Below are positions 14,325-46,986 of a stretch of 64,000 nucleotides of DNA, in pieces (position 1 is the first letter of the stretch; each line of letters starts with the position of its first letter). The translations under genes and the position numbers were made by a program. This DNA is from Acidobacteriota bacterium (GTDB lineage Bacteria; Acidobacteriota; UBA6911): NCBI GenBank assembly GCA_963664705.1, contig OY761556.1, positions 5,280,001 to 5,344,000 of the forward strand, written 5' to 3'. The notes under the pieces were generated by a model. It was given only the letters and a program-made list of their open reading frames with translations. It was not told the DNA's origin and did no database searches.

Positions 14325-15785
14325 CTATTTTTTTAGGAGTTGCCAGTGAATGGAAATGGCTGAATATTTGGCCGACCCGCTATAGAGCATCAAGCGCTTC
14401 CAGGCATTTGCCTCGGTGGGCGTTTGTCGGATTTCTACTTCCTTGGGATCCACATCGATTGTCACAGGATCGCCTGGCAGCATATTCCCCTCAATGGTTC
14501 CAATGGAAGCTCTCGGTCCGTCGATAACGAGAATCGAGTTTTTGGGCAAATTGCCGGTCCAGCTGATGAAGCCGGAGGCAGGACCTGGCGCCTGACCCGC
14601 CGAGGGGACAAATTTCCTGACGGGCGGCTCCGCTGCGGGCTGTTTCGACACGGGCCCGGATTTCGGTTCGATCGCCGGACTCGAAGACGGAACCGTGTTT
14701 GATATTTCCGGTTGAGTCGCTTCGGCGACGCTTGTTGGGACTGTTACCGGGACCTGTAATTCGGCTCGTGGCGGCTGTTGAGGCGCGTGTTTAACGAAAA
14801 ATAAAGCAGCGACAGCGAGAATCACGGCCGCTGCCAGCGCAATCCATTTCCAGGTACCGCCCTGTTTTATAACCTCCGGCTCCTCCTCTGCCGGCATGTC
14901 CGGCGCTGGTTGGACGGCGGTGGGGGCGATCGGAACCGCAGCGGGCTGGAGTTTGCTTTGCTGTTCTTCTCGATGCCGTGCGTAGCAGGACTCGAGCTCC
15001 CGCACAAAATCGACGCAACTCTCAAACCGCATTGGTGGAGTTTTGGAGAAAGCCTTCTCAAATGCGGGTCGAAGGAAGGAAGGCAAACCGGAACTTTCAT
15101 ATTCCGGTTCTTCCCATAGGATTTTTGATAATACGGCCGTCAGAGTGGGGCCGTCAAAAGGAAGCTTTCCCGTCAGGATTCGATAGGCGACCACCGCCAG
15201 GGAAAACTGATCCGCACGCCCGTCTGTCTCATGCCCTTGCGCATGCTCGGGCGACATATAACTGGGTGTGCCCAACACGAAGCCGGCCTGCGTCAACGAA
15301 GTCGATGCCGATAGCTTCGCCACTCCAAAGTCAGCAATTTTGACCGCCCCATTCGTGGAGATCATGATGTTGGACGGCTTGATGTCCCGGTGGACTATGC
15401 CCTTGCTGTGAGCATAATCCAGCGCTTCGGCCGTTTGTTTCAAAATGGAAAGGAAGGTGGCGGAGGGCTGCGGAACGCCGCTTGCCAGGATGTCCTCCAG
15501 AGTTTTGCCGGTCACAAATTCCATCACAATATAGGCATTGCTCAGACGCTCACCGATATCGTGGATCGTAATGATTCCAGGGTGAGAAAGAATCCCGGCG
15601 GACTGGGCCTCCCTGAATAAACGGCGTGTCAACTCATCCCGCGTGCTCTCATCACCAAGGGCATCCAGGCGAATTGTTTTGATTGCAACCTGGCGGCCGA
15701 TGAGGGGGTCGATGGCAGCGTACACGACTCCCATGGCCCCTCGCCCCAGCTCCCGAATAATCTCATATCGGCCCAATTGCTGCAT
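14325..15785 (-). CDS. Membrane Hanks-type Ser/Thr protein kinase (PpkA-like position, last gene of the tss operon)
   Basis: LGRGAMG, VAIK, HRDIKPSN, DFG, GTPSYMSPE; TM WIALAAAVILAVAALFFV; Pro-rich linker and C-terminal beta-rich extracytoplasmic domain. Confidence 0.93.
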   Translation of the reverse strand: MQQLGRYEIIRELGRGAMGVVYAAIDPLIGRQVAIKTIRLDALGDESTRDELTRRLFREAQSAGILSHPGIITIHDIGERLSNAYIVMEFVTGKTLEDILASGVPQPSATFLSILKQTAEALDYAHSKGIVHRDIKPSNIMISTNGAVKIADFGVAKLSASTSLTQAGFVLGTPSYMSPEHAQGHETDGRADQFSLAVVAYRILTGKLPFDGPTLTAVLSKILWEEPEYESSGLPSFLRPAFEKAFSKTPPMRFESCVDFVRELESCYARHREEQQSKLQPAAVPIAPTAVQPAPDMPAEEEPEVIKQGGTWKWIALAAAVILAVAALFFVKHAPQQPPRAELQVPVTVPTSVAEATQPEISNTVPSSSPAIEPKSGPVSKQPAAEPPVRKFVPSAGQAPGPASGFISWTGNLPKNSILVIDGPRASIGTIEGNMLPGDPVTIDVDPKEVEIRQTPTEANAWKRLMLYSGSAKYSAISIHWQLLKK

Positions 15786-15810
15786 GGCGCCCCTTTCCCC
15801 AAAGCCTTGA

Positions 15811-16305
15811 TCAGCCTCCGATCATAACCGTCGGACAACCCATGGCAATTTTGTTGGGGGGACCCAATGGTTCCAAAATCGAGTCTCCCTGCCTGGCAGC
15901 AGGAAGGTTATTAATCAGGACGGTTGAAGAACCGGTAATCACAACGCCCGGCCCATGCGGCGGTACGGGCGATGGCGTGGAACATGTATGAAGATCCGCT
16001 CCGGCGGCTGCCGAGGAGATCGCTGCCCCCATGGAGGCAAGCATGGAGGCTTTGAGCGCTTGTTCCGCAGCAAAAGCTGCGGGCGCTCCGGGTGAGCCGG
16101 CCGCCGCCTTTGTTGCCATTTCGGCCGCCTGCACTGCGGTATCGGCGGCCTGTTTTGCGGCCTGCACCGCGGCTACTGCTGCAAGAGGCATTCCGCGCCA
16201 GGCCGGAAGGAATCCTATGAGCACATTGGGGCTGCCGGGGCCGCCCGATAAGATGGGTGGAAGCGGATGGATTACAGGGTCTGTAATTCTAGCTGCGGCT
16301 GGCAT
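15811..16305 (-). CDS. PAAR spike-tip protein with Ala-rich insertion
   Basis: MPAAARITD, LPAWR, HTC...PPH, LPAARQGD, GCPTVMIGG; AGGAGG RBS before ATG 16305. Confidence 0.9.
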   Translation of the reverse strand: MPAAARITDPVIHPLPPILSGGPGSPNVLIGFLPAWRGMPLAAVAAVQAAKQAADTAVQAAEMATKAAAGSPGAPAAFAAEQALKASMLASMGAAISSAAAGADLHTCSTPSPVPPHGPGVVITGSSTVLINNLPAARQGDSILEPLGPPNKIAMGCPTVMIGG

Positions 16306-16409
16306 CTTGCGATCCCTCCTCTTGGGAAGACCATCGATGGACCCCCGGACCGGAGTCAGGTTTGGCCGCGCGGGGTCCATGTGAGTCCAACAATGCATTC
16401 ACCGATAGT

Positions 16410-19031
16410 CTATGAATAAACGAAATTCCCGTCTTCTCCAACCGTTACGTTGATCGATTCCAGCTTCTGCCCTTCCGCGATGCGTGTGAGAAGCTGGCGT
16501 GAAATCTCGGGCAGCAGAGTATTGGTGATGATGTTATCCACGTTGCGTGCCCCGCTTTCCACTTCGGTGCAGCGGCGGCCGATTTCCTGGATCAATGGCT
16601 CGCTGCAGTTCAAATCGATCTTGTGGTTCTCCCGGATGCGCCGCTGGATCTTCCCAAGCTTGAGCAGAATGATCTTTCTCAACGCTTCATCACGGACCGG
16701 GTAATACGGAATAATCACGAGACGGCCGAGGAACGCCGGCTTGAAGGTTTTGTTCAGCTCCGGCTTGATCGCCTTTACGATTCCATCCGGCAAGGGCATG
16801 GTTTCAGGGTCGGCGCAGAGTTTCATCATGGCATCGGTCGCGGCATTGGAGGTGAGCAGAATAATCGTATTCTTAAAGTCGATTTCGCGACCTTCGCCAT
16901 CTTCCATCCGTCCCTTGTCAAAGACCTGGAAGAAAAGCTCGAGAACATCCGGATGGGCTTTCTCCACCTCGTCCAGGAGCACGACGGAATAGGGTCGGCG
17001 TCGGACGGCTTCGGTAAGAACACCGCCTTCTCCATAGCCGACATAGCCCGGAGGCGAGCCCTTCAAGGTAGACACGGTATGGGCTTCCTGGAATTCAGAC
17101 ATATTAATAGTGATGACGTTGCGCTCTCCCCCATAAATCATGTCGGCCAGCGCAAGCGCGGTTTCGGTTTTCCCGACGCCGCTGGGGCCCACGAGGAGGA
17201 AGACGCCGATCGGTTTTTGCGGATCTTCCATGCCCGCCCGGGAGGTACGGATGCGCTGGGCGAGGGCTTCCATTGCATGATCCTGGCCGATGACTCTTTC
17301 AGCCAGGTGCTTTTCCAGCGAAAGGATGGTCTGAATCTCGTCCTTCACCATCTTGCCGGTGGGAATGCCTGTCCAGGCAGAGATCACTTCACTGACGATA
17401 TGTCCATCCACGCAAACGCGCATCAACGGGTTATCGCCTTGGAGCGCATCCAGTTCCGCGGTGAGCTGATCGAGTTCGGCGCGCAGCGGAGCCTGATCTC
17501 CCGTGCCTTCCTCCAGCTTTGCCCGAATCTCCCGGATTTTTCCCACCAGGGCCGTCTCTTTTGCAAATCGTTCCTCCAGCAAGGAAAGCTGCTTCTTTAC
17601 ATCTTCGCGCCGGGTGCGAATCTGTTGGAGGCGCTCTTCGTGATCCCCGCCTGCAGCCGCTTCACGCAGCAATACCCGCTCCTGGAGGTCGAAGTCATCG
17701 ATCTGCCGCCTGGCATCCTCGATGGGGGCCGGAGTGGAATTCTGTCCCAGCGCAAGGCGCGCGCAGGCGGTGTCCAGGACGCTTACAGCCTTGTCCGGAA
17801 GCTGCCGTCCGGCCAGGAAACGGTGGGACAGGCGAACCGCGGCCGCTACCCCTTCGTCAAGGATGCGGACCTTGTGATGCTTTTCCAGCGAACCGACAAT
17901 TCCCCTCAACATCACAAGGCACTGCTGCTCTGTTGGTTCTTCCACCTTCACGACCTGGAAGCGGCGTGCGAGGGCCGGGTCTTTCTCGAAGTACTTTTTG
18001 AATTCAGACCATGTGGTTGCGGCGATGGTGCGTAGCTCACCGCGTGCCAGCGCTGGTTTCAGCAGGTTCGCGGCATCGTTCTGGCCCGCCTGTCCGCCGG
18101 CGCCAATCATGGTGTGAGCTTCATCAATAAATAGGATGATGGGTGAAGGAGAAGCCTTCACCTCCTCAATCAAGCCTTTGAGTCTGTTCTCGAACTCGCC
18201 TTTGATTCCAGCTCCCGCCTGCAGCAAGGCAAGGTCCAAAGTACGAATCGTGACATTCTTGAGCGCTGGGGGAACATCGTCGGCCGCTACACGCAGAGCC
18301 AGTCCTTCCACCACCGAGGTCTTTCCGACGCCGGCTTCACCGGTCAGGATCGGGTTGTTCTGGCGGCGGCGCATCAGAATATCGATGATCTGGCGCACCT
18401 CAACATCGCGGCCGAGAACGGGATCAATCTGGCCGTTTTTTGCCTTTTCCGACAGATTCACGGTGAACTGATCGAGATTGGGGGATTTGCCGCTTCCCGC
18501 CGGACGGGGAGTACCATCCCCAGCGGAGGGCTCCCCTGCAACGGCGGTTACGTCATCCTCATTGGAGCCGCGAATAATGGACGCCAGCTCCTTCTTCAGA
18601 GTATCAACTTCAAGCTTTGCCAGCTCTTTGCTGATCTCTCGCGCGATCCTGCCGAGTTCGTCGTCGGATATCATGGCCAGGATCGTAAAGCCGCTTCGCA
18701 CCTGGGCGGCACCATAGTCAATGGATCCCAGCGTCCATGCCTGGGTCAGCATTTTCAGAATGGAGGGACTGATTGCCGGCGTGCGCGCATTCCCGGATTT
18801 GAGCTTGTCGAGGCTGCGGGTAAGATCGGCGGTCAGTCTTGATTGATTTACCTCGAAACGATAGAAGATGCGCGCGACGTCATTGTCTGTCGCCTCCATC
18901 AATTTCATCAGGTAATGCTCGATCTCCACATTGTAATGCGTGCGGGACAGGCATAGTCCGGCGGCGCCTTCGAGAGCGCTGCGCGTTGGAGCATTCAGTT
19001 TTCCAATTAGTGACTTCAGGTTTACGCTCAT
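16410..19031 (-). CDS. tssH: T6SS ATPase ClpV/TssH
   Basis: MSVNLKSLIGKLN, RRRQNNPILTGEAGVGKT, GPSGVGKTETA, LKGSPPGYVGYGEGGVLTEAVRRRPY, ESGARN. Confidence 0.96.
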   Translation of the reverse strand: MSVNLKSLIGKLNAPTRSALEGAAGLCLSRTHYNVEIEHYLMKLMEATDNDVARIFYRFEVNQSRLTADLTRSLDKLKSGNARTPAISPSILKMLTQAWTLGSIDYGAAQVRSGFTILAMISDDELGRIAREISKELAKLEVDTLKKELASIIRGSNEDDVTAVAGEPSAGDGTPRPAGSGKSPNLDQFTVNLSEKAKNGQIDPVLGRDVEVRQIIDILMRRRQNNPILTGEAGVGKTSVVEGLALRVAADDVPPALKNVTIRTLDLALLQAGAGIKGEFENRLKGLIEEVKASPSPIILFIDEAHTMIGAGGQAGQNDAANLLKPALARGELRTIAATTWSEFKKYFEKDPALARRFQVVKVEEPTEQQCLVMLRGIVGSLEKHHKVRILDEGVAAAVRLSHRFLAGRQLPDKAVSVLDTACARLALGQNSTPAPIEDARRQIDDFDLQERVLLREAAAGGDHEERLQQIRTRREDVKKQLSLLEERFAKETALVGKIREIRAKLEEGTGDQAPLRAELDQLTAELDALQGDNPLMRVCVDGHIVSEVISAWTGIPTGKMVKDEIQTILSLEKHLAERVIGQDHAMEALAQRIRTSRAGMEDPQKPIGVFLLVGPSGVGKTETALALADMIYGGERNVITINMSEFQEAHTVSTLKGSPPGYVGYGEGGVLTEAVRRRPYSVVLLDEVEKAHPDVLELFFQVFDKGRMEDGEGREIDFKNTIILLTSNAATDAMMKLCADPETMPLPDGIVKAIKPELNKTFKPAFLGRLVIIPYYPVRDEALRKIILLKLGKIQRRIRENHKIDLNCSEPLIQEIGRRCTEVESGARNVDNIITNTLLPEISRQLLTRIAEGQKLESINVTVGEDGNFVYS

Positions 19032-19167
19032 TCAGGACTCCTTGGGTAATGCCGCATGGTTATCGTCCAACAGGACGGTGAAAAGCGGCCCGGCACCTTG
19101 CGGGCCTGGCATAAAAGGCGATTTGCGAATCTTCGGAATAATGCAATTTCCTTTATTGCTTGCTGAA

Positions 19168-20208
19168 CTACAGCGCGAGGATGCTCTCATCCGGGTTTTG
19201 CGCCGGGGTTGTGGTCCGGGCCCAGGTAAGCCAGCCAAGTCGCGGAGCCGCGGGACCTTCCGCGCCAAGTTCGCAAGGCGGTGTTTCTTCCTTCTGCAAA
19301 ATCAACTGCGCCTCTATATCAAGCTCAGGACCGCTGAAAAGACGTACAAGAGCTCGTAATGGCTGATGTGCACTTCCCTCGGGAAGGAAATCAAGGTATT
19401 GCTTCAGCGTCAGGGGCCCCAGCTTTATTCGGACGCCGGATTGCTGGTCCCATATCTCATCTCCGACTACCGTGCCGAATCCCAGCTTTTCCGAATCGGA
19501 ATCGGTGCCCGTAAAGCGAGTGGCGTCGTCGATCGGGTACCATTTACCGACAAACTGCTCGATTTCAACCGGGACATCAAAATAGTCGATAAGCAGGGCG
19601 CGCAGGGCAGCGGCTGAACGAGCATGGCTCGCCAGGAGGCCCGAACGAAAAAGAAGCGCTTCGTCCGGGAACGGTTGCCGGGCGCTCAGGTGAGGCGTGC
19701 CCAAGCCCAAAAGATCCATCACGTGCGGGGACAGGGGATCGGGTTCACTCCGTTCATAGCCGACGGTGAAATGGTGTTTTTCCCATGCACGATAAAAAAG
19801 CGAAATGGCGCGGTGATTGAAAAGATCGAGAAACTCATGCAAGGCCACATCGCGAGAGCGAAGGCGTTCGCGAATCAGCGCGGAATATACGAGCGGAAGA
19901 AGGCCCTGGGGCCCGGTCAAACCCATAAAGCTGACATTCATCCGGGGTTGACGATCTTCGGTCCAGTGCATATCAGCGATAGGCCCCGGAGGAAAGCCAA
20001 TTTCTGTCGTGGTTCCAAAGCGGACAACCTCCGACTTTGGATCGGAGAAGCCGCCGACGGATTTCCTGTCCGGCAACAATCGGCTGAGAAGCCGTACTGC
20101 CTGAAAGAAGTCGAAAGCCGATGGCTTGCCGCGCAGCAGCTCTTCGATTTCCGGGGAAGCGATAGCATTTTCTACAGGAGAATTTTCGTTCCCGCTCTCG
20201 GGGGCCAT
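19168..20208 (-). CDS. tssG: T6SS baseplate subunit TssG
   Basis: FDFFQAVRLL, FMGLTGPQGLLP, FLDLFNHR, YRAWEK, LGWLTW; overlaps the tssF end. Confidence 0.94.
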   Translation of the reverse strand: MAPESGNENSPVENAIASPEIEELLRGKPSAFDFFQAVRLLSRLLPDRKSVGGFSDPKSEVVRFGTTTEIGFPPGPIADMHWTEDRQPRMNVSFMGLTGPQGLLPLVYSALIRERLRSRDVALHEFLDLFNHRAISLFYRAWEKHHFTVGYERSEPDPLSPHVMDLLGLGTPHLSARQPFPDEALLFRSGLLASHARSAAALRALLIDYFDVPVEIEQFVGKWYPIDDATRFTGTDSDSEKLGFGTVVGDEIWDQQSGVRIKLGPLTLKQYLDFLPEGSAHQPLRALVRLFSGPELDIEAQLILQKEETPPCELGAEGPAAPRLGWLTWARTTTPAQNPDESILAL

Positions 20209-22010
20209 TGCCTCACGACCTCCTTTCTCTGGCGCGTTGTAAAGCTCAGCCGGCTGAAGCTGTTCAGCGTGACGTATTGGCCCAGAAAATTTTCGAGGAC
20301 ACTGGCGAACAGGTAAACGCCGCCACCAACAAAATTGTCTTCATCCAGATTCATCTCGACCCGCGTGCCGCGAACGAAACTTATGCCGTTCTCAGAAAGA
20401 ATGCGGGCGAAACTCGGGCTGCTCTTAATCTCCAGAATCCCCTCAATCTGTTTGGTGGAATGTAAGGAATCGCTGAAATTGTAGAGTTTGAGAATCTCCT
20501 GAAAGGCTTCCTTCCCTTCGCTCACGAGCGACAGATAGTTCAGCGATAAATGCGAGATCAAGCGCCATAAAGAGGATCGGCCTTGCGGCGGACGAAGAGA
20601 AAGTGTCGGTTTTCGTATTGCGACAATAGATTGAACCGGCATGGCGCCGTCCATTTCAAAGTCGCCGGATTCCATTCCAAAGGGAAGCCGGGCCGGGATG
20701 TCTCTATTGGTACAGGTCAGACGGACCGTGAGGCTGTCGACATCGGGTGCAAGGGGCCGTTGATCGAGATCGACCAGGGCAATGGCCATTTCTGTTCCTT
20801 CATCATCGCGGCGTCCGGATGGCCGTCGCGTAGCCAGCCAGAAAGCCTGTCCGCCGGAAGATGCGTTTCCATGCCGGTAGGAATAGAATGGCTCGAAGTG
20901 CACGGGTTCCTGCGTATCGGGGCGGACGCTGACAACATCATCCACAGAAAAGATTTCCGTGGCATTCGGTCTACGGATATCCGGGATGATGGGATATTCA
21001 AAGCGGCGTTGAGTCAGAAGAATAGGTTCCGCCGTTTGAGTGAACAGGTTCACCGCGGGAGCACACGTCAGTTGAAATGTTTTTGGCGAAACACCCAACT
21101 CCAGCATCTGCCGGCGCTCCGAAATTTCGAACGGGGAAATCAGAAAAACAAGCTCTGCCCTGTCCTTGAATCCGCTCAACGCCTTATCCAGTCCAAGCAA
21201 ATCCAGGAAAAAGTACTTTTCCGGAAAAGCGAAATATTCATGAAGCAGCTGGTAGCCGGAAAAGGATCGGCGCGGGTATGGGAGCAGGCTCTCATCCTCG
21301 GCGAAGCCGAGGGGACGCAGCGCGTCGGGCGGCAGGGCTACAGGCGGAACCTTGGAATTGGGACTGGGGTCCCGGACAAGGATCTGCAGGACACGGCTGC
21401 ATAGAAGTTCGTACAGCGTGTGAACGAGGCTGCTTTCGCCATTGAGAAAAAAACGCAGCGGATAGGGCTTTGTACTCTCGAAAGACACGTCGCGCCAGCA
21501 GGCAAGCTCCACTCGCAGCGCCGCCACGGCTTCCGTGGACTTGACGGCGGGTTGCAGGCGGTCAGGGGTTTTCCATTCCGCCGCAACGATACTCAAGGGC
21601 CACAGATAGGCATCGTAGCAGGTGCGAAACTTGCACGCCACACCTGCAACCGGTCGCGAAGAAAGAACAGTGCCGCGGTCGATCTTCAATCCGGTTCCAA
21701 TGGGGGCCTGCCCGGGATTTACACGGAAATCCACGACAGTGGCGGAAGGAACCGGGCGAATGAAATGCGGGTAGATGATGCTCAACAGCGCTTCCGTAAT
21801 TTCGGGGAATTCGTCATCAATTTTCAGATGAACGCGCGCAGCCAGGAAAGCAAAGGCTTCAAGAAGACGTTCGACATGAGGATCTTCGCATTTGTCGGGT
21901 TCGAGGTTCAGGCGAGATGCGATTTTCGGGTACTGTTCGGCGAACTGTGCCCCCATACGCCGGAGAAAACTGAGTTCGCGTTCGTAGTACAAAAGAAGAT
22001 CGTCGCGCAC
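20172..22010 (-). CDS. tssF: T6SS baseplate subunit TssF
   Basis: YYERELSFLR, DPHVERLLEAFAFL, LLHEYFAFPEK, WRLISHLSLNYLSL, YVTLNSF. Confidence 0.96.
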   Translation of the reverse strand: MRDDLLLYYERELSFLRRMGAQFAEQYPKIASRLNLEPDKCEDPHVERLLEAFAFLAARVHLKIDDEFPEITEALLSIIYPHFIRPVPSATVVDFRVNPGQAPIGTGLKIDRGTVLSSRPVAGVACKFRTCYDAYLWPLSIVAAEWKTPDRLQPAVKSTEAVAALRVELACWRDVSFESTKPYPLRFFLNGESSLVHTLYELLCSRVLQILVRDPSPNSKVPPVALPPDALRPLGFAEDESLLPYPRRSFSGYQLLHEYFAFPEKYFFLDLLGLDKALSGFKDRAELVFLISPFEISERRQMLELGVSPKTFQLTCAPAVNLFTQTAEPILLTQRRFEYPIIPDIRRPNATEIFSVDDVVSVRPDTQEPVHFEPFYSYRHGNASSGGQAFWLATRRPSGRRDDEGTEMAIALVDLDQRPLAPDVDSLTVRLTCTNRDIPARLPFGMESGDFEMDGAMPVQSIVAIRKPTLSLRPPQGRSSLWRLISHLSLNYLSLVSEGKEAFQEILKLYNFSDSLHSTKQIEGILEIKSSPSFARILSENGISFVRGTRVEMNLDEDNFVGGGVYLFASVLENFLGQYVTLNSFSRLSFTTRQRKEVVRQWPPRAGTKILL

Positions 22011-22499
22011 CTAATCACCCTTTATCTGGTATTCGCCGGAATTCAGCTGCAACACGGTATCAAACAGTATCTGTTCCGGCGCCGGATCCATTTTGAGCAA
22101 GCCCTCGATTTGAAATCGCAGGATACGAGGCCCTGAACCGGCGTTATCGATGGCTCGCACTTGAACCTGTGTCAAGCGAGGTTCGAAAATTTCAATAGTC
22201 TGCTCGATCACTCGCAGCAAACGCTGCCGGTCTCGCGACGAATTCAACCCCATGGAGGTTACGTCGGGCAACCCGTAGTTATAAAGTGAGCGAAACAGCT
22301 CTTCATAGGTTTCCGGCACCTCATCGGGATTTCTCCTGGAATTGAGCAGCCATTCCAGGTCCCGGCGCAGCGAGGCCTTCAACTGGCGAACAGATTGAGA
22401 GCGGTTTGCAGGGGGATCACTGCTGACATCCGGATTCGTATCGATCAAGCGATCCAACACCGAGATCGTTACCGCAAGATCGGGATCCGGTCGCGCCAT
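22011..22499 (-). CDS. tssE: T6SS baseplate subunit TssE (gp25-like)
   Basis: SVLDRLID, RRDLEWLLNSR, YGLPD, FEPRL. Confidence 0.94.
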   Translation of the reverse strand: MARPDPDLAVTISVLDRLIDTNPDVSSDPPANRSQSVRQLKASLRRDLEWLLNSRRNPDEVPETYEELFRSLYNYGLPDVTSMGLNSSRDRQRLLRVIEQTIEIFEPRLTQVQVRAIDNAGSGPRILRFQIEGLLKMDPAPEQILFDTVLQLNSGEYQIKGD

Positions 22500-22502
22500 G
22501 CC

Positions 22503-24329: not shown

Positions 24330-24346
24330 TGCCGTATGGAACGCTT

Positions 24347-25057
24347 CTATTCCGCTGCTGCGGCAGTCGGGAATTCCAGCGTCCGTACCTCCAGGATAGG
24401 AAACTCTTCGCCATCGATAAGCAGGACCTTCTGTCCCATCGGCACCGCAGCCTCATCAACCTCTTCCCAAAGTGTCTGCCGGCCAAGACGAACGGAATTG
24501 TCGGCATGGCGGAATGAAAGTGGAGTCAGTGCCGGAATCATGACTTCGCCCAAGTCCAGGCCTCCGCATTTGGGCGAGGTTTTGAGAACGGCAGGGATCC
24601 AGAGAAGATCCCGCAACCGCTTGGGGGCTTCCATCCGGATGGACGTGATATGAGCAAACGGAAGCCAAAGGTAGGAACCTGCGGCAAATACCTCAAGGCG
24701 GGCGCCAATGCGCGGATCAGCGTCTTCAATAGCGGCATAGGATGCGCCGTTCATTGTGAAGGACCCGACCGGATCCGCCGTGCTTTGAGGAAAAGTCTTT
24801 TTTTCGAACATTTCGCGCCGAAGCCGTTCCGCCTGGATGGCGGAGCGATACACAAGCGTACCCATCCCGGCTTCCTTGCTGAGGTCGGAGAGGATGTCCA
24901 ACTGCTTTTCAGCCCGATCCAATTCACCCGTGAAACAGAACAACTCAAAAAGGAAAGTCCGGTTTCGCACGTTGGTGGGATCATTTCTCAATTCGGATGC
25001 TAGTGATTTAACAGCCTCTTCGAGTTGCCCGGCCTTGAACAGTTCATTGGCATTCAT
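24347..25057 (-). CDS. tagJ: T6SS accessory TagJ/ImpE
   Basis: MNANELFKAGQL, RTFLFELFCF, DADPRIG, RDLLWIPA, RLGRQTLW, GQKVL. Confidence 0.9.
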   Translation of the reverse strand: MNANELFKAGQLEEAVKSLASELRNDPTNVRNRTFLFELFCFTGELDRAEKQLDILSDLSKEAGMGTLVYRSAIQAERLRREMFEKKTFPQSTADPVGSFTMNGASYAAIEDADPRIGARLEVFAAGSYLWLPFAHITSIRMEAPKRLRDLLWIPAVLKTSPKCGGLDLGEVMIPALTPLSFRHADNSVRLGRQTLWEEVDEAAVPMGQKVLLIDGEEFPILEVRTLEFPTAAAAE

Positions 25058-25089
25058 CTCTCCACCGCCTTTCACAGATAGCTGCTTCC

Positions 25090-25140
25090 GGAAATTGCGG
25101 CAAGGCGCACGGGGGATAGACCGTGCGCCCTGCAATTTCC
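25090..25140 (-). terminator. Stem-loop after hcp (partial terminator or mRNA stabiliser)
   Basis: ggaaattgc..ggcgcacgg / ccgtgcgcc..gcaatttcc inverted repeat between hcp and tagJ. Confidence 0.45.
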
Positions 25141-25153
25141 AAAGGTAAATGGG

Positions 25154-25630: not shown

Positions 25631-25669
25631 GTTTCACTCTCCTTATATAGAGCCTGATCGAGCCTGTGA

Positions 25670-35937: not shown

Positions 35938-35952
35938 TAAGGAGACTCCGCC

Positions 35953-36666: not shown

Positions 36667-36679
36667 GGGAGAGACCATC

Positions 36680-39600: not shown

Positions 39601-40144
39601 CTATCTTCAGAAACAAGGGGCTCTATATGTGGCAAACCCATCGGGCAACATTCAGCTGACGCCGGGCTTTATTGCATTTTTTAATGCAGCCGCGCGATTT
39701 TCAGATGCTGTTTATCCCGGCGGCGCCAGCGAGCCGAACTTCCGCTACATTTTGAATCCACAGAAATCGGACCAGATCAAGGAAATGAGCGTTTCGATTG
39801 ATGGTCAGACAACCAAGGGTCAAAAGCAGTATGTCTGGACAGGAAATGCGAACCACAGTGTCCGGATCAGCGCAAAACTCCAGGGTGGATCGGATTTCGA
39901 TTTCCAGGATCGCACGGGAATATGGTCGTTGTTCCATTTCTTTGCGGATGCTGATCGATGGAACCCCAATGGCAATGGATACCTGCTTGAATGGGTTGTT
40001 CGCCAGGGACGAGAAGGGCGGCCGGTAATGGTTGGCGGAAAAGAACTCACCTACCGGTTCGTGGTAGAAACCGGAGGCGCCGCGCCGGTATTCCAGAAGG
40101 AATTTCTCAGCGGAATGAGGTGCACCTCTCAGGCTGTGAAATAG
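36680..40144 (+). CDS. tssM: T6SS membrane subunit TssM/IcmF
   Basis: Two N-terminal TMs, LPVIFVMGDPGATKT, YPVYVLFTK, PFLRGFYFSG, third TM, YDTLKAYL, IPGAYT, KFPFN, GIWSLFHF. Confidence 0.92.
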   Translation: MKIYWTAGAALVGYLLLAWVTESVLHLDTTRFYIVFAILAALGIGVTAVFLWLWNKKEGSSGQGSGTMDRDDEIDGLIREAENRLAASNLAKGSKMANLPVIFVMGDPGATKTSTIVNSGLDPELLAGNVYQDTTIVSTRLANIWFTRGMIFVEAGGKLLTDPQRWSRLLQRLRPGRLSSAVRNEQAPRAALLCFDAETFVRPGSTEAANAASRNLQKRLGEISQYLGISYPVYVLFTKMNRVAFFEEFVRNFNNEEAQQVLGATLPMQTQAISGTYADEQSKRIGTYFDDVFYSLADHRISLLPRENDAQKLPGAYEFPREFRKMRNGIVQFLVDLCRPSQLNVSPFLRGFYFSGVRPIIVQDTPVEAPRPSAAAQRNPFEAAGTATGFFKAGDLPKQIQTPLVQSGTGTRKVPQWIFLNQLFTGIILRDRTALSASGSSTRTSTLQRVLLAAAAALFLILAVGFTVSFFGNKALVKEIADAVAGIPAGEASGMNLPSKAALQKLEDLRMSLVKLTRYEEEGAPLGLRWFLYTGGDLYPEARRLYYTRFNQLLFIQTQGQMLGSLRMLAIPPAPTDDYAKNYDTLKAYLITTSESKRSSKWLSPVLLSRWSEGRTIDPAILPLVVKQFDFYSEDLARANPFTDKNDAAAIDRARQHLSRFSGTEQIYQFMLADASRRSKKVNFNEQFPGSAETVINNLDIPGAYTKAGWTAMQENLAKADKFFGGERWVLGDYAAAQPDLAKMQEELRGRYTAEYLEKWREFMRISRVVRYNGLKDAVKKLNVLSGAQTPLMALFWVASQNTSVGSPKLTEAFDSVQKVVPPPATTVQYVWPTNQEYMGSLASLQSAINQVADVSGPPDPNIALPVKQSADSAHNIVKKMGYTFRIDPDAHIETVTSKLLEAPIDYVDALTKGMGAGEINLKAGRFCSDFAKVSSKFPFNPTAKTEVTLQELGAIFRPRDGQLWTFFNDTLQRYLQKQGALYVANPSGNIQLTPGFIAFFNAAARFSDAVYPGGASEPNFRYILNPQKSDQIKEMSVSIDGQTTKGQKQYVWTGNANHSVRISAKLQGGSDFDFQDRTGIWSLFHFFADADRWNPNGNGYLLEWVVRQGREGRPVMVGGKELTYRFVVETGGAAPVFQKEFLSGMRCTSQAVK

Positions 40145-40177: not shown

Positions 40178-41605
40178 TTGCCGGATAAATATGATGTAGT
40201 CAGATATCCCAGTTTCCCGAGGGATCAAAGCCATCCAGCATACATTGCAGCACTGGCGGCTGTCGCAGGGCTGAAAACGCCTCCTGTAGGGCAGTGGCGC
40301 GTTCTCGAAATCGGGTGCGGCGATGCGTCCAATATCCTGCCACTGGCCGTGGAGTATCCGAACGGGCAGTTTGTTGGAGTGGATCGAGCGGCGCAGCCGC
40401 TGAATGTCGGCCAAACACTTGCCCTCGATCTCAAGCTTTCAAACCTCGACTTGATCTGCGCCGATCTGATGGATTGGAAGCCGGGAAGCGAATTCGATTA
40501 TATCGTTGCGCATGGTGTGTTTTCATGGGTTCCGCAGGAAGTCCGGCGGAAGATCCTGCAGCTTTGCAGTGAGAGTCTGAAGCCTGCGGGTATTGCTTTT
40601 ATCAGCTACAATGCCCTTCCCGGCTGCCATTTTCGTCGCTATGTCCGGGATTTGCTTCGATTTCATGTGCGCCGCGATAGTGACCCGGTGTTCCGAATCG
40701 GCAAAGCTCGGGATTTTGCCCGGTTCATGACGGAAATGCACGGCGACGAACCGCTTCAAAATGCCCTGCGGTATGAATTCAATACGCTGCTGGAACGGGA
40801 TGAGACGGCTCTCTACCATGACGACCTGGCCGAGGTAAATGATCCCTTTTATCTAATGGATTTTGTCGGGCTGGCTGCGGAGTATGGCCTCCAGTATCTG
40901 GGAGATGCCGATCCAATCCGTGATGATCTGCAAGGGCACGCGCCATTTGCTGAAAACTGGCTGGAAGCCAGGCAATACATGGATTTCATGACCAGGCGAA
41001 GATTCAGGGAGACGCTGTTATGCAGGCGGGAGATCTCACTGGACCGTTATCTCAGGATGGAATCGCTGAAGGAGATGTATATTGCATCCCGTTTGACACC
41101 GGGCAAGCTGGAAGACGGCGATGTGCAGACATTCTCGTTTCCCAAGGCGGGCACGCTGAGTACGAATAATCCTATCATCCGGGAAATTTTGTTGCGGCTC
41201 TGCAGTATCTGGCCGGCATCGATGCCTGTTTCGGAATTTCCACTCCATGACCAGGATCCCAAGGCGATCGCTGAGCTTCTGATGCAACTGGTCAGGAATA
41301 AGGCATTGGATATAAGGGCCACTCCTCCCCAAATTGCCGACTGGGTAGGCGAACGTCCGCAGGCAAGTGCGCTCGCGAGAATTCAAGTGGCACAGGGTTA
41401 CCCCATGGTAACCAATCAACGGCATCAGAATGTCGAATTGGGCGACGACCGGAGTCGGAAGCTGATCGCCCTTCTGGATGGAACGCGTGATCGTACCGCG
41501 CTGCTGGATGAGCTTGGGTCCTTTGGGGCGGATCGCGCGGAAATCGCTCAAATGCTGGAAAATGCTCTCATTGAACTTCACCGGTGTTGTCTGCTTACCC
41601 GCTGA
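40178..41605 (+). CDS. Protein lysine methyltransferase-like enzyme (Rickettsia PKMT / methyltransferase regulatory domain family)
   Basis: YDVVRYPS, RVLEIGCGDASNILPLA..YP...FVGVD, FDYIVAHGVFSWVP, GIAFISYNALPG, YHDDLAEVNDPFY, QYMDFMTRRRFRETLL, LLDGTR. Confidence 0.82.
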   Translation: MPDKYDVVRYPSFPRDQSHPAYIAALAAVAGLKTPPVGQWRVLEIGCGDASNILPLAVEYPNGQFVGVDRAAQPLNVGQTLALDLKLSNLDLICADLMDWKPGSEFDYIVAHGVFSWVPQEVRRKILQLCSESLKPAGIAFISYNALPGCHFRRYVRDLLRFHVRRDSDPVFRIGKARDFARFMTEMHGDEPLQNALRYEFNTLLERDETALYHDDLAEVNDPFYLMDFVGLAAEYGLQYLGDADPIRDDLQGHAPFAENWLEARQYMDFMTRRRFRETLLCRREISLDRYLRMESLKEMYIASRLTPGKLEDGDVQTFSFPKAGTLSTNNPIIREILLRLCSIWPASMPVSEFPLHDQDPKAIAELLMQLVRNKALDIRATPPQIADWVGERPQASALARIQVAQGYPMVTNQRHQNVELGDDRSRKLIALLDGTRDRTALLDELGSFGADRAEIAQMLENALIELHRCCLLTR

Positions 41606-41759: not shown

Positions 41760-42728
41760 ATGCGTCGCTTGTATGCCTTCACTGTCATTCTGTGCATTTC
41801 GTTAACCTTGGCGAATGCTCAAACCAAACCGCGCGTGGCGGTCATGGATTTTGATTACGCCACCGTGCAAGATGTCAGCGCTTCCATTTTTGGGACCAAT
41901 GTTGATATTGGAAAGGGCATTACCGATTTGCTGGTCGAAAAGCTGGTGAATGGCGGTTCGTTCTCCGTCATCGAACGAAAGGCGCTCGACAAGATTATGA
42001 CAGAGCAGAACCTATCGAACAGCGATCGATTCGACAGCACATCGGCGGCCAAGATCGGCCGATTGCTCGGAGTGGATGCGATTATCACCGGCAGCATCAC
42101 TCAATTCGGCCGCGATGATAAGAACACCAATATCGGTGGCGGCGCAGTCGGAGGCATTACGCGCCGGTTCGGAGTAGGGGGCGTCGGGAAAAAGGAATCA
42201 AAGGCAGCTGTCGGAATCACCGCGCGCATTATCAACACGGATACCGCTGAAATTCTGAGTGTTGCGACCGGGAAAGGTGAATCAAAGCGCTCCGGAGCCA
42301 CCCTGCTTGGCGCTGGCGGCAGTTCCGATACTGCGGCTGGCGGCATTGTCGATATGCGCAGCAGCAATTTTGCCAATACAATCCTGGGAGAAGCGGTCGG
42401 GCAGGCAGTCGCTTCTGTGGCAACGCAGCTCCAGGGGAATGCGAGCCGGCTTCCCGCACGTGTGGTAAAGATCGACGGCCTGGTTGCGGATGCAACGGGC
42501 GGGGTTCTGATCCTGAATGTAGGCAGTCGGGCTGGAGTGAAGGTAGGGGACAAGTTATCGGTTGTGCGCACGGGACGTGAGGTGCGCGATCCGGCCACCG
42601 GCAAGGTAATTCGGCGGGTTGAGGAAGCGCTGGGAGATGTCGTGATTACGGAGGTCGATGACCTTTCCTCCGTCGGCAAATACACGGGAGCCAATCCCGC
42701 AAAGGTAGGCGATCGAGTTCATAATTGA
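41760..42728 (+). CDS. CsgG/HfaB-family exported protein with FlgT-like C-terminal beta domain
   Basis: Sec signal (ANA/Q), RVAVMDFD, FSVIERKALDKIMTEQ, KIGRLLGVDAIITGSITQFG; C-terminal LNVGSRAGVKVGD...DPATG. Confidence 0.85.
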   Translation: MRRLYAFTVILCISLTLANAQTKPRVAVMDFDYATVQDVSASIFGTNVDIGKGITDLLVEKLVNGGSFSVIERKALDKIMTEQNLSNSDRFDSTSAAKIGRLLGVDAIITGSITQFGRDDKNTNIGGGAVGGITRRFGVGGVGKKESKAAVGITARIINTDTAEILSVATGKGESKRSGATLLGAGGSSDTAAGGIVDMRSSNFANTILGEAVGQAVASVATQLQGNASRLPARVVKIDGLVADATGGVLILNVGSRAGVKVGDKLSVVRTGREVRDPATGKVIRRVEEALGDVVITEVDDLSSVGKYTGANPAKVGDRVHN

Positions 42729-42739
42729 TACGAGGGCGT

Positions 42740-44467
42740 ATGGGCTACGAAATCGGTTCTCGAGTCGGTGATTACGAAATACTGGAGATTCTGGGCGCTG
42801 GAGGCATGGGCCGCGTGTATAGAGTCCGAAATGTAATTTCGGACCGCGTTGAGGCCATGAAGGTTCTGCTGCCGGATCTGGAGGGGAATCCGGGTCTCGC
42901 GGACCGTTTCATGCGCGAGATCAAAGTGCAGGCAAGTTTGGATCACCCGAACATTGCCGCGCTGTACACCGCACAGCGAATAGAAAATCAGCTCATTATG
43001 TTAATGGAGTTTGTCGAAGGAACTACGCTCGACAAACTGATGGAATCGGGACCCATTGCTATCGACAAGGCGGCGGACTATATCGCGCAGGTGCTATCGG
43101 CGCTTGCCTATGCGCATGCACGGGGTGTGGTTCATCGCGATCTCAAACCTGCCAACATGATGGTGACCGGGAGCGGCCTGGTCAAGCTGATGGATTTTGG
43201 AATAGCCAAAATGACGGCGGACAGAAAACTCACCCAAACCGGGAGCACGGTCGGATCGCTGTATTACATGTCTCCCGAGCAGATTCAGGGAGCTGTCGAT
43301 CTGGATCCGCGCTCAGATCTTTATTCGCTGGGTGTCTCACTGTATGAAATTGTCACGGGAGCCAGGCCTTTCCAGGGTGACAGCGAATATTCGATCATGG
43401 CCGCGCACCTTCAAAGCAATCCGCCTCCCCCGATTCAGATTTCACCGAAACTTCCGGCAGGGCTGAATGAGATTATCCTTCAGGCTCTCGAAAAGGATCC
43501 GGCCCGGCGATTTCAGACAGCGGACGCATTCAGAAACGCTTTGCTGTATGTCTGCAAAGGCGGGCAGGGAGCGGCCGTTGCGCCGTCGCCAGTGGCTCCG
43601 CCGCAACCGGCCAAAAAGGCGGACCCCGTTCCTCCGGCCAAACCGCAAGTTCCCCCTGCTCCTGTCGCGCCATCCGGCCGTTCTCATCGCGGGCTATGGA
43701 TCGCGGTTGGCGCTGTTCTTGCGATTGCCGTGATTGTTGTGGCCGCAATGCAGATCCCAAAGTTCCGGCGCACGGCGGCGGAAACTGGGCAGGCTCAGCC
43801 TCCGATAGCAAGCCAGGCTGCGGATCCGCCGGTTGTGCAAACAACAACGACCACAGCCGCCGAAACGCAGCCTTTGACGACAGAAAACACCGCCACACCG
43901 GCAACGACACAAACTCCGCCGTCCGCTCCTCCGGCTCAGCTTTCCACCGCGGCCAGCCAGACCGCCGAGTCAGTGAAGGTAGCCAAGCCGCCGGCCGCGG
44001 CTCGCGTCGCGACGGTACAGCCCGTGAGAACAGGCCGTGCAATTCAGGAATCTGTGGCGGTCCGATCGAACCCACCGGCGGTCACTTCTTTTGCCGAGCC
44101 GCCGGCAGTCTCCAGCTCGGCCAGACAGGAACCTCCGCAACAAACCTATCAGCAGACTCCGTCTAATCCGCCCGCTCCTGCGGAGGATCCGGCAATCGCG
44201 GAGCGACTGAAGGAAGTGAACGAGCAGTTAGACATGTTGGGAGTAAGGGCAGGCACGGTCCGGGGCAGCCTTGAGGCGTTGCGTAAGCAACAGGCAATGT
44301 CCGGACTTGGGTTGAGAGCCGATATGGCCAATGCCGCCCAGCGGATGGAAATGTTTATGAGTCAGACGCAAAGTGCGCTCAAGCGGCGGGACGCGGATGC
44401 AGCAAAGAAAAACCTGGATTCCGCGGAACGCGAAGTTTCCAAGCTCGAAAATTTTCTACACAAATAG
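42740..44467 (+). CDS. Membrane Hanks-type Ser/Thr protein kinase
   Basis: LGAGGMG, AMK, HRDLKPAN, DFG, GSLYYMSPE; TM; Pro/Thr-rich linker; C-terminal helical domain. Confidence 0.93.
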   Translation: MGYEIGSRVGDYEILEILGAGGMGRVYRVRNVISDRVEAMKVLLPDLEGNPGLADRFMREIKVQASLDHPNIAALYTAQRIENQLIMLMEFVEGTTLDKLMESGPIAIDKAADYIAQVLSALAYAHARGVVHRDLKPANMMVTGSGLVKLMDFGIAKMTADRKLTQTGSTVGSLYYMSPEQIQGAVDLDPRSDLYSLGVSLYEIVTGARPFQGDSEYSIMAAHLQSNPPPPIQISPKLPAGLNEIILQALEKDPARRFQTADAFRNALLYVCKGGQGAAVAPSPVAPPQPAKKADPVPPAKPQVPPAPVAPSGRSHRGLWIAVGAVLAIAVIVVAAMQIPKFRRTAAETGQAQPPIASQAADPPVVQTTTTTAAETQPLTTENTATPATTQTPPSAPPAQLSTAASQTAESVKVAKPPAAARVATVQPVRTGRAIQESVAVRSNPPAVTSFAEPPAVSSSARQEPPQQTYQQTPSNPPAPAEDPAIAERLKEVNEQLDMLGVRAGTVRGSLEALRKQQAMSGLGLRADMANAAQRMEMFMSQTQSALKRRDADAAKKNLDSAEREVSKLENFLHK

Positions 44468-44484
44468 GAAGGCAATATTCTGCA

Positions 44485-44530
44485 ATGCGCGAAATCCACA
44501 GCAACCGGATCAGCTGTGGATTTCGCGCAT
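44485..44530. terminator. Perfect 18-bp hairpin between convergent genes
   Basis: atgcgcgaaatccacagc-N10-gctgtggatttcgcgcat. Confidence 0.7.
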
Positions 44531-44545
44531 GGAACGAGCGCTTTT

Positions 44546-45349
44546 TCAGGACTCCCAGGGAACCGGCGGCGGCTGCCACATGACTGATACGGCATCCTGG
44601 GTCGCATAATCGGAATCCACTTTTGCCCCACCAATCCAATTGTCGCCACGATACTGCCAGACTTTTACCATCCCAAAATGGCCTGCATCGGGAGCATCCG
44701 GTACCCAGGGACCGGGGTCTGTAAAATTGCCGCGATGCGGGCTGAAAGACCAGATCCATGCTCTCTGGCTGATATTGGGGACTCGGACCCAGTTTGTTTG
44801 AATGATGGCCGCTTCAATGGCACCGAAACGCTCGACCAGCAGTTCCGGGTACGTCATCAGCACAAGCGCATTGACATAGGTCTGTTTCAGCGTGCAGTAC
44901 AGACCTGCCTGGTATGCGCTCATACCAAACACGGAGGACCACCACCCAAGAATCCAGGCTGGAGTTACATTGGGCCAGGAAGGTTCAATGTCCGCCCATA
45001 TATACACACCGGGAGGAATCCCCAGAGTGGAAGCCGCATTGATGGCATCAAGTCCATCCTGAATGCCATCCATAAAGGTGCCCCTCCAGGCAATTCCTCT
45101 GCGCTGGTAAACCGTGCGGTTATAAATGGGCAGGATAGCGCATCCATTTTGAAAGAGGTAATTCACTTCGGCGGTGGTTAGAGTACTCTTGTCTCCGGAA
45201 GCATTGGGTGTTCGGATATAACGTCCCCAATATGCGGGTTTCTTCTTTTTCCGAACCTGGTCAAAAAGCGTCAAGTTGGAGGTTGATTGCCAGGTGGCCG
45301 GTGTAACGGAATCTACTCCCCAGTGGGGATCTGTGATCCATTGTCCCAT
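44546..45349 (-). CDS. DUF1906/Rv2525c-like (GH25-related) glycoside hydrolase, no signal peptide
   Basis: WGVDS, YWGRY, LTTAEV, ILPIYN, G..DG..A...A..LGIPPGVYIWADIE, GLY, VWQY, VDSDYA. Confidence 0.8.
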   Translation of the reverse strand: MGQWITDPHWGVDSVTPATWQSTSNLTLFDQVRKKKKPAYWGRYIRTPNASGDKSTLTTAEVNYLFQNGCAILPIYNRTVYQRRGIAWRGTFMDGIQDGLDAINAASTLGIPPGVYIWADIEPSWPNVTPAWILGWWSSVFGMSAYQAGLYCTLKQTYVNALVLMTYPELLVERFGAIEAAIIQTNWVRVPNISQRAWIWSFSPHRGNFTDPGPWVPDAPDAGHFGMVKVWQYRGDNWIGGAKVDSDYATQDAVSVMWQPPPVPWES

Positions 45350-45468
45350 ACAATGCCCTCTCTCGCCTGTCTGGTAATGCAATAAACTTAGTAGAACAAA
45401 TCAATGCTGGTTAGCGGCAGTGTAGGAAAAGATATCTATAAAAGCAACAGAGTATACAGAGATTCTGC

Positions 45469-46986
45469 TTATAGTTGCGGGGTAAGGAAGCCTCTCCGGA
45501 TCAGCGCCTGAACAATGCTCAGGCAACCGCCTGAAACAGTTTCGAAAGGTACATTTGCATCCTTGGCCAGGGCTGAGATCAGGTCGCGCAAGGGCGTCGT
45601 GCCATCGCAGGTACGGATCAGGTTGGCAATACGGAGGTCCATTACCGCCGAGAACTGAAAACCTCCGATTTGACGAAGCTGGTATTGGCCGGCTTCCCAC
45701 GCGGATCCATTCCAGGTTCGCGAAGTTTCTATGGCAACGGAAGGAGCGATACCCACTCTGCAATTCAGCAGGTCGGCGCCAAGGCTGTCTACGATATCTG
45801 TCGCTTCGAAATATCGCGCCACGGCTTCTCCAAATTGGGTTGGCGTGCGAGGCGGAAGAGATTCCAGGTGTACCCAATTGGAACTTGCCGTTCTCTTGCG
45901 CAGGGCCAGGAGTCCTTCCGAGATTGATACAACATTCCTTCCTGTAAAATAATCAATGTAGTTATCGTAACCTGCTTGCTGTATTGCCGGATCGAGCATC
46001 TCGGTATCGTGCATGGTTTCTTCGGAATGTTCGTGGATGTCCTTGATTCGCATGTGGAGCAGAAGGACGTCGCACGAGAGGTTCTGCACGGCATCCAGAA
46101 TGCGTTCTTTCCATTCTGCCCCGGCTATATTGGGCCATTCCAGGGTGCACTGAAAAATGCCGCCCTCATTTAGGTAGGCGGGCGCTTCGGCGATGATTTG
46201 CCGGCAAAAGCCGTCGAGTTCGATGCCACTGTCGCGGAAAGAGTAATGGGATGCCGGACCAATGATGCAAGGCGGATTGGCGGTAATAAGATCAAAAGAG
46301 CATCCGGCAACCGGCTCAAAGAGGCTTCCGGTAGCAAACTGAATGTTGGATATTCCATTGAGGCGGGCATTGAACGTGGCCAGTTGAATGGCTCTCGGAT
46401 TGAGGTCTGTTGCGACAATCTGTTCGCTGGATTGGGCGGCAAGGAATCCCAGGATTCCGCATCCCGTGCAGAGATCAAGCACGCGAGCGAACCGTCGGGG
46501 CACCATAAAACGGGCGAGCGTGGCCGAGCTGTTGGTTGCGCTGTTGACATAATCGGAATCGGCGCCGCAATCCAGGAGCTCGGGTTTTTCGGATGCAAGC
46601 AACAGGCCCTCAATGACGCTGATGGCAACAAGCGCTTCCACCTGATCCCCATCGATACAAAGCAATCCGGCATCGCACCATTCTTCTATCGGGATTGGTT
46701 GGAGCGTCTCTCGAGCGGCGGTCAGCGAAACAGGAACGCCCAGGAGAAACAGGCGAGCCAGCGTATTCAGCTTAGTTTTCTCAGAAGTCAATCGAAGCAG
46801 GCGGGGAAGATTCTGGCCGCCGCGCGCGCGCAGCTCAATCACTTCAGAAGTTTTCTCGGGCGAGGGCGGAAGATAGCCCGATTCCACGAAGGCCTGACGG
46901 AACCTTGTTGCCTGAGACAGGGAAATGGCCGCAATCTTTTGTGTGTCCGCTCGTTTCAGTTGTGCCTGCGATGGTTGAGTTTCCAT
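45469..46986 (-). CDS. Class I SAM methyltransferase (HemK/MTS-like) with C-terminal PqqD-like winged helix; paralogue of 30765..32276
   Basis: RVLDLCTGCG, FNARLNG, FDLITANPPC; C-terminal LIRTCDGTTPLRDLISALA...LIRRGFL. Confidence 0.85.
   Translation of the reverse strand: METQPSQAQLKRADTQKIAAISLSQATRFRQAFVESGYLPPSPEKTSEVIELRARGGQNLPRLLRLTSEKTKLNTLARLFLLGVPVSLTAARETLQPIPIEEWCDAGLLCIDGDQVEALVAISVIEGLLLASEKPELLDCGADSDYVNSATNSSATLARFMVPRRFARVLDLCTGCGILGFLAAQSSEQIVATDLNPRAIQLATFNARLNGISNIQFATGSLFEPVAGCSFDLITANPPCIIGPASHYSFRDSGIELDGFCRQIIAEAPAYLNEGGIFQCTLEWPNIAGAEWKERILDAVQNLSCDVLLLHMRIKDIHEHSEETMHDTEMLDPAIQQAGYDNYIDYFTGRNVVSISEGLLALRKRTASSNWVHLESLPPRTPTQFGEAVARYFEATDIVDSLGADLLNCRVGIAPSVAIETSRTWNGSAWEAGQYQLRQIGGFQFSAVMDLRIANLIRTCDGTTPLRDLISALAKDANVPFETVSGGCLSIVQALIRRGFLTPQL

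Follow-up and report, generated by a model that had tools for sequence, protein, structure and literature searches.

Methyltransferases with an RRE-type fold as an accessory feature of type VI secretion loci in Acidobacteriota

Described post-translational control of type VI secretion systems (T6SS) includes a threonine phosphorylation pathway with the components PpkA, PppA, Fha, TagF, TagQRST and RtkS. For another machine and with another enzyme family, Salmonella FliB, a flagellin lysine methylase, provides an example of an appendage-locus methyltransferase acting on an exported filament subunit. Here we analyze a T6SS locus of an Acidobacteriota bacterium (lineage UBA6911), contained in a window of 64,000 nucleotides (contig OY761556.1, positions 5,280,001 to 5,344,000), which carries three methyltransferase genes, denominated MTA, MTB and MTC, a gene for a repeat protein (REP) and two kinase genes, K1 and K2 (Table 1). 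Comparison with other genomes shows that such methyltransferases are a real, phylum-wide accessory feature of acidobacterial T6SS loci. A description of T6SS protein methyltransferases was not found in the part of the literature that was accessible. The accessible part of a review of T6SS regulation treats phosphorylation control by PpkA, PppA, Fha and TagF and has methylation merely in a general list of modifications (PMC10482370), and the available portions of two further papers make no mention of a methyltransferase (PMC13098142, PMC13373197). Rhizobium Re78, considered as a methyltransferase effector, was rejected as a wrong assignment, the methyltransferase there being Re87; as far as the available text of that study goes, Re87 is a small O-methyltransferase-like remnant with a full-length homolog outside of a T6SS context (PMC10215855).

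By profile and by fold, the nearest solved relatives of MTA and its family are GenN and AerE; for MTA, hidden Markov model (HMM) searches gave E-values of 1e-30 and 3e-19 and a Foldseek search with its structural model E about 1e-18, AerE being among the two top folds. GenN (PDB 5u18) and the proteusin asparagine N-methyltransferases AerE/PoyE (7rc2-6) have the N-terminal and the catalytic domain in common with MTA. The same AerE/GenN-like N-terminal domain and class I Rossmann fold are present in MTC according to its family profile; both enzymes belong to one family (DUF7059, MTS, DUF7782) and are 23% identical over 441 residues. In contrast to AerE/PoyE and GenN, however, MTA and MTC carry an additional C-terminal domain of the RiPP recognition element (RRE) fold, and neither a precursor gene for a RiPP, a ribosomally synthesized peptide modified after translation, nor an epimerase gene was found in this locus by Pfam scan. 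A 61-row tree of the family, obtained by a quick IQ-TREE search, consists of a 40-row clade with mostly the motif HPPY, a 19-row clade with mostly NPP(F/C) and two outliers.

For MTA and MTC, the presumed target atom is a nitrogen, either of an amine or of an amide. According to the accessible text of the AerE study, AerE methylates asparagine side chains in an unstructured peptide, for which the leader is not required, and has GenN and PrmC among its structural neighbours (PMC9060474). The catalytic set of AerE (Tyr137, Asp141, Asn231 and Phe234) is not kept in MTA or MTC as far as the HMM alignment, which is the only basis of this comparison, can tell: MTA has a histidine at the position of Asn231 and an asparagine near Asp141, MTC has a cysteine at Phe234, and an equivalent of Asp141 is absent from both. 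Amide methylation is therefore not established. An earlier note on this DNA had correctly seen motif IV as HPPY in one enzyme (MTA) and NPPC in another (MTC), but the HemK-type amide chemistry it attached to them is not supported; scores against the HemK/PrmC models TIGR03534 and TIGR00536 are far below the cut-off, and the motifs differ from NPPY.

The C-terminal domain of MTA, when folded alone, forms three strands followed by three helices (pLDDT 93.6), as do the PqqD/RRE domains of TbiB1, NisB, MibB, PbtF and PqqD. Structural comparison with VIA-align, which covered this domain of MTA alone, gave Z-scores of 9.9 for MibB, 9.1 for TigE, 8.2 for TbtB, 8.1 for TbiB1, 7.8 for NisB and 7.3 for PqqD, of 9.3 and 7.5 for the C-terminal domains of Rv2067c and PKMT2, and of 8.0 for NovN. 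In addition, a profile match to PqqD (5sxy) was obtained at E 6.6e-4, and Pfam PqqD was found in 12 of 54 family members at E up to 0.1. The C-terminus of MTC corresponds to Pfam DUF7782 with a weak PqqD match (E 0.04) and that of MTB to the Pfam PKMT_2nd winged helix. Since RRE-bearing proteins and the C-termini of Rv2067c and PKMT2 are the best structural matches, the three enzymes share an RRE-type fold, modelled for MTA and assigned by Pfam for MTB and MTC, and the PqqD/RRE pattern noticed earlier in the C-terminal domains has been confirmed by the model and by the structural and profile matches for MTA. The domain presumably binds a peptide; an extended segment of the substrate would be gripped by it during methylation by the S-adenosylmethionine-binding domain. 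In the PqqD/RRE systems this role involves a precursor peptide, whereas none was identified here, and peptide binding is putative.

GenN, a small-molecule methyltransferase, is the top match of MTA in both sequence and fold. With the C-terminal domain as the query, Foldseek ranked the carbamoyltransferases GdmN (first) and NovN highest, small-molecule enzymes in which an RRE-like fold also occurs. Both observations speak against a protein substrate, and MTA and MTC might instead methylate a small molecule in the manner of GenN, e.g. by detoxifying or making a competition metabolite. We regard this as very unlikely: GenN lacks the C-terminal domain, since its chains are about 320–340 amino acids long and do not match beyond profile position 315, biosynthetic genes beside the enzymes were not recognised in the window by Pfam scan, and the PKMT-type partner would be left unexplained.

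That partner, MTB, aligns with PKMT1/2 of Rickettsia (5dnk, 5doo) over nearly its full length (E 9e-115), as had been expected from its resemblance to a Rickettsia PKMT, and has the Pfam domains MethyTransf_Reg and PKMT_2nd beside the catalytic domain; Rv2067c of M. tuberculosis (8hkr) is a structural relative of the PKMTs. MTB would methylate lysines as PKMT1/2 do. The known substrates of these relatives are outer-membrane proteins or a host histone, whereas MTB sits in a tssKLM operon of a non-pathogen lineage. Between tssM and MTB, two loci of relatives (L024:8981-9713 and L150:1435-2062; L numbers denote loci, G numbers genomes) contain a conserved frame of about 130 codons with no family assigned.

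A search with REP in 137 genomes of the same class gave 15 matches, 11 of them strong, and all 11 lie between two tssK genes; the four weak ones (E about 1e-3 to 1e-4) were set aside as noise from sequence of low complexity. In these 11 close loci an ortholog of MTA directly follows REP in eight (in one of them in pieces), MTB follows tssM in six and an MTC ortholog is present in three. The orthologs occupy fixed slots between core genes at 54–62% identity. All three methyltransferases occur together in three close loci and none of them in two, which does not support the single fixed six-gene module proposed by the earlier note. G127 lacks hcp at its usual place, and an hcp of 40% identity lies beside an MTC-type gene of 30% identity in the slot of MTA. 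Because of this replacement and the variable retention in the close loci, the enzymes are optional and exchangeable; REP and the kinase behind tssM vary less.

The link to T6SS was examined further with an MTA/MTC profile (cut-off E up to 1e-40) in 231 genomes of another acidobacterial class, a sample that was not selected on REP. All 24 genomes with a match have tssK, which is present in 45 of the 231, and the MTA/MTC family occurs in none of the 186 tssK-negative genomes; without G498 the co-occurrence is 23/23. The co-occurrence persists within three families; broken down by family, the enzymes are found in 12/21 tssK-positive versus 0/13 tssK-negative genomes, and further in 7/8 versus 0/23, 4/7 versus 0/24 and 1/5 versus 0/29. 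At the level of loci, tss genes were present in 19 of the 27 examined; of the remaining eight, two lie beside a PKMT-type gene, one lies beside REP and two are partial matches. The slots include the positions after REP and after tssM, the tssK-tssB and tssH-vgrG gaps and a site beside a TssB-TssC fusion gene. MTA/MTC-type and PKMT-type enzymes, although unrelated families, stand side by side in 7/27 loci, and within the HPPY clade 35/40 rows are at most 5 kb from a tss gene, in several slots. Copies of the family are confined to the T6SS locus in four further genomes, and a fifth has one extra copy elsewhere. PKMT-type genes occur in 21 of the 231 genomes, 19 of them with tssK, and in the class to which the window belongs 11/12 genomes with such a gene have tssC. 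In a metagenome scan of 9 out of 64 parts, with the top 80 of 577 matches retained, tss or hcp genes accompany 32 of the 78 best PKMT-type loci, and 20/33 among those of at least 6 kb. In a 102-row FastTree phylogeny of PKMT-type enzymes the rows linked to T6SS are dispersed, which forces at least 7 changes. Plasmid searches gave 2 and 1 records and were little informative. Gene neighbourhoods and genome tallies are thus far above the base rate, in agreement with the suspected link between these methyltransferases and T6SS.

TssB-TssC fusion-like genes travel with methyltransferases in L108 (4612-6255), L110, L112, L113, L115, L120, L128 and L129, sometimes away from other tss genes; for L108 both VipA and VipB were seen by Pfam.

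Several points reduce the weight of this association. The MTA/MTC profile was built from T6SS-linked members, and the tallies, in which genome size is uncontrolled, treat genomes as independent and overstate this independence because the genomes are related. PKMT-type loci of the second class have tss genes in just 7/23 cases, and in a 301-genome sample of the phylum 4 of the 10 genomes with the MTA/MTC family gave no Hcp match. Both wider families also have members in unrelated bacteria, namely C. glutamicum and Caulobacter as well as actinobacterial and Methylococcus replicons. Finally, the sister clade of MTB (L133, L151-L156) stands behind a gene for an exported Ig-repeat protein, and the stretch examined contains no tss genes. 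Owing to the genomes lacking an Hcp match, the homologs in unrelated bacteria and this sister clade, dedication to T6SS is uneven; it is strongest for the HPPY clade and weaker for MTC and MTB.

In the loci of the sister clade, an operon of exported proteins ends in a multi-Ig (He_PIG) protein and is followed by the MTB-sister enzyme and, where seen, by K2; in L156 a CsgG-like gene and MTC are also present. These arrangements, in which the enzyme follows a signal-peptide Ig-repeat gene, would fit enzymes with a general role in methylating exported or surface proteins, which have no more than neighbourhood and lifestyle in common with the T6SS. PKMT1/2, whose substrates are outer-membrane proteins according to the accessible text of the respective study (PMC8232902), and the occurrence of both wider families in unrelated bacteria point in the same direction. 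However, the Ig-repeat proteins constitute one orthologous, lysine-poor set (43–63% identical, about 1% lysine), and neither the absence of the MTA/MTC family from tssK-negative genomes nor the repeated insertion of two unrelated families into different tss slots is easily explained by hitchhiking. We therefore consider this explanation improbable.

About equally improbable, in our view, is that the enzymes are delivered effectors, or modifiers of effector cargo and not of the machine. Their presence is patchy in an effector-like way, homologs lie beside vgrG or PAAR in L086, L094, L127, L158, L172 and L213, and Rv2067c, the structural relative of PKMT, is secreted and methylates host histone H3, as stated in the available part of that report (PMC10739865). 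Most of the enzymes are nevertheless found by tssK, tssB or tssM and not by spike genes, the slots between core genes are fixed, and no immunity-like gene was seen travelling with them.

We favour the reading that these are optional, interchangeable T6SS methyltransferases that probably act in the cytoplasm by N-methylating one of the machine's proteins, for which Hcp or the tube-sheath pair is the leading candidate; for this reading as a whole we see close to an even chance, and that the target is some protein of the locus we consider probable. Hcp or the tube-sheath pair is preferred because tube and sheath genes are the smallest context common to both enzyme families. A PKMT-type gene comes directly after hcp, on the same strand, in L047, L166, L175, L186 and L187, and the genome of L047 has this pair although it gave no tssC match. 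The exchange in G127, the TssB-TssC fusions beside the enzyme pair and the extended Hcp of L194 and L223 described below fall into the same context. Protein and peptide methyltransferases are also among the nearest solved relatives of the enzymes. Methylation would mask or stabilise the exported tube, or tune assembly. The evidence consists of folds, motifs, gene order and genome co-occurrence. Co-divergence was compared among methyltransferase, Hcp, TssK1, TssB, TssC and the REP N-domain. For methyltransferase and Hcp the partial r was 0.42 in 23 loci, 0.15 without L061 and about 0 in a 16-locus set, so that the signal comes from one locus, that of G127, and is lost when it is left out, a point against this reading; the test did not separate Hcp from REP. 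In L194:215-682 and L223:7169-7645, an Hcp with an N-terminal, signal-peptide-like extension was observed, divergent from the PKMT-type gene.

REP itself belongs to a large, unnamed family, for which a search with E up to 1e-10 gave 581 cluster representatives. Translation probably begins at the ATG of residue 8 or of residue 12, the protein is membrane-anchored with a C-terminal transmembrane helix, and a tandem repeat with a period of 135 lies inside the gene at 32765-33385. Its motif has the consensus P-G-E-F-T-R-M-F-(Q/G), derived from 241 motifs in 38 open reading frames, with the threonine and the last phenylalanine fixed by the search pattern. PDB matches of the N-domain are kinases in 41 of 43 cases, aligned over the N-lobe, but at E 0.05 or weaker; kinase-length matches in genomes are likewise weak, kinase rows of a protein atlas stand at 0.87, and pairwise BLAST against K1 gave no match. 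The genome collection contains 37 REP loci, including 10 of the close loci, and within the stretch examined per locus 34 have tss genes, 22 an MTA/MTC-type and 6 a PKMT-type enzyme. Three REP genes (L072, L074 and L078) have no tss gene in the stretch examined and are perhaps remnants of split loci.

The RRE-fold domain might grip the PGEFTRMF motifs, REP being either the substrate or a scaffold that recruits the enzymes and the kinases to the baseplate. Located in a disordered region, the motif is short and conserved with a hydrophobic pattern, and MTA orthologs (47–62%) stand right after REP, often with overlapping stop and start, both in the eight close loci and throughout an 18-row clade; in the window, the start of MTA overlaps the stop of REP by one base (TAATG), the coupling reported before. 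Methyltransferase distance also tracks the REP N-domain in 16 loci with one control pair (partial r 0.35, p 0.007), but this is gone with TssK1 as the control (r 0.06). Moreover, 15 of the 37 REP loci are without a methyltransferase in the stretch examined, and the motif usually has no lysine and is therefore unsuited to MTB. The proposal of the repeat motif as a general recognition site is not supported: four of five tested genomes with an HPPY-clade enzyme and tssK gave no clear repeat protein, just weak kinase-type matches or none. Because its gene is coupled to that of MTA, REP is a fair candidate partner for the MTA subclade, but it fits poorly as a general partner of the methyltransferases, and we hold it unlikely, though less so than the other alternatives, that REP is what the enzymes act on or assemble around.

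Compared with the known threonine phosphorylation pathway, the locus likewise has a membrane serine/threonine kinase after tssM, here preceded by an exported CsgG-family protein; it differs in the lack of an FHA or PP2C gene and in the presence of a threonine-repeat membrane protein, REP, instead. Both K1 and K2 have HRD and DFG motifs and one transmembrane segment each, and the genome's FHA (5) and PP2C (3) matches all lie outside the window, so that two membrane kinases in the absence of a local FHA or PppA gene, as originally described, were found again. A profile search for TagF gave no match, though control genomes gave none either. The position of K1 varies among relatives, and a 51% paralog of it exists outside the locus. 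The CsgG/FlgT_C-family gene overlaps K2 by 4 bp and this pair is kept in 9/11 close loci; the CsgG-like exported protein is a possible sensor of K2, and in a T6SS for which no TssJ was detected it could be either a kinase sensor or an outer-membrane part. The threonines of the REP motifs could be kinase sites. The kinases and REP likely form a separate, more constant layer, a PpkA-like threonine phosphorylation pathway without a local FHA or PppA gene.

The window adjoins dnaA, and the core genes of the locus are split into two arms on opposite strands. The minus-strand arm has the order tssB-C-hcp-tagJ-tssA-E-F-G-H-PAAR-K1 and the plus-strand arm the order tssK2-L-M-MTB-csgG-like-K2; tssK1 and the minus-strand pair REP-MTA lie between them, and MTC and a hydrolase form the right edge. 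All three methyltransferase reading frames are intact, with the coordinates, the 33 bp between the end of tssM and the start of MTB and the position of MTC upstream of the hydrolase as given in the earlier note; MTC and the hydrolase gene are on the same strand, 86 bp apart.

Table 1 Features of the T6SS locus, with positions in the window
Feature	Position	Strand	Basis
K1, membrane Ser/Thr kinase, closes left tss operon	14325..15785	-	Pfam Pkinase, motifs, transmembrane segment
PAAR protein	15811..16398	-	Pfam PAAR_motif
Operon tssB, tssC, hcp, tagJ (ImpE), tssA, tssE, tssF, tssG, tssH	16410..27675	-	Pfam
Hcp tube protein, 158 aa, 15 Lys	25154..25630	-	Pfam T6SS_HCP, Lys count
U28, 268-aa protein	28258..29064	+	No Pfam or NCBIfam family matched
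tssK copy 1	29192..30547	+	Pfam T6SS_VasE
MTA, AerE/GenN-like class I methyltransferase, HPPY motif, C-terminal RRE-fold domain (about residues 392-495)	30765..32276	-	
REP, with a kinase-N-lobe-like domain, 11 PGEFTRMF-type motifs in a Pro-rich region and a transmembrane helix at the C-terminus	32276..34276	-	
tssK copy 2, tssL, tssM	34537..40144	+	Pfam
MTB, full-length PKMT1/2 homolog (MethyTransf_Reg, PKMT_2nd winged helix)	40178..41605	+	
CsgG/FlgT_C-family exported protein	41760..42728	+	Pfam
K2, membrane Ser/Thr kinase, PpkA-like position after tssM	42725..44467	+	
Rv2525c-like glycoside hydrolase	44546..45382	-	Pfam PF08924
MTC, DUF7059-MTS-DUF7782 methyltransferase, NPPC motif	45469..46986	-	

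Of the genes that characterize T6SS subtype i, those for TssA, B, C, Hcp, E, F, G, H, K, L and M were all recognised by Pfam, tssK twice, and genes for the VgrG and PAAR spike exist in the genome. TssJ (PF12790), likewise a part of this subtype, was not found in the genome, although an E. coli control matched; a divergent TssJ could be missed. The window contains PAAR at the place where close relatives carry vgrG and a HEAT-repeat gene after tssH. A vgrG was not found inside the window; the only one of the genome is an 861-aa orphan about 1.5 Mb away (G000:C1:6826920-6829505). Among the 11 close loci, U28 and the Rv2525c-like hydrolase were each seen solely in the window locus, and both may be effectors; a comparison of U28 with the protein atlas gave no match above 0.81. 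The locus is flanked by a thymidylate synthase gene (13443-14282, plus strand), which resembles that of methanogens most (TIGR03283 at E 9e-29, not reaching the cut-off) and is also found in G119. On the other side, positions 47143-57766 hold an anaerobic-type catabolic cluster with a CoA-transferase III, two lactate-racemase-family genes, a 2-hydroxyacyl-CoA dehydratase with its activator, Ldh_2 and an acyl-CoA synthetase.

Taken further, methylation may constitute a second post-translational layer of the T6SS, with two unrelated RRE-bearing families repeatedly recruited to the Hcp tube or the sheath, beside an FHA-independent kinase pathway organised around a membrane-anchored pseudokinase-repeat scaffold that replaces Fha, in a machine without TssJ; this wider picture is tentative, and we give it somewhat less than an even chance. 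If true, methylation of tube, sheath or scaffold would be a new layer beyond threonine phosphorylation and TagF, two large groups of uncharacterised enzymes (DUF7059/DUF7782 and PKMT-like) would gain a function, and RRE domains would be extended from peptide natural products to a secretion machine. The locus also documents, for a phylum that is abundant and rarely cultured, a T6SS subtype with two tssK genes, no recognisable tssJ and an unnamed repeat protein.

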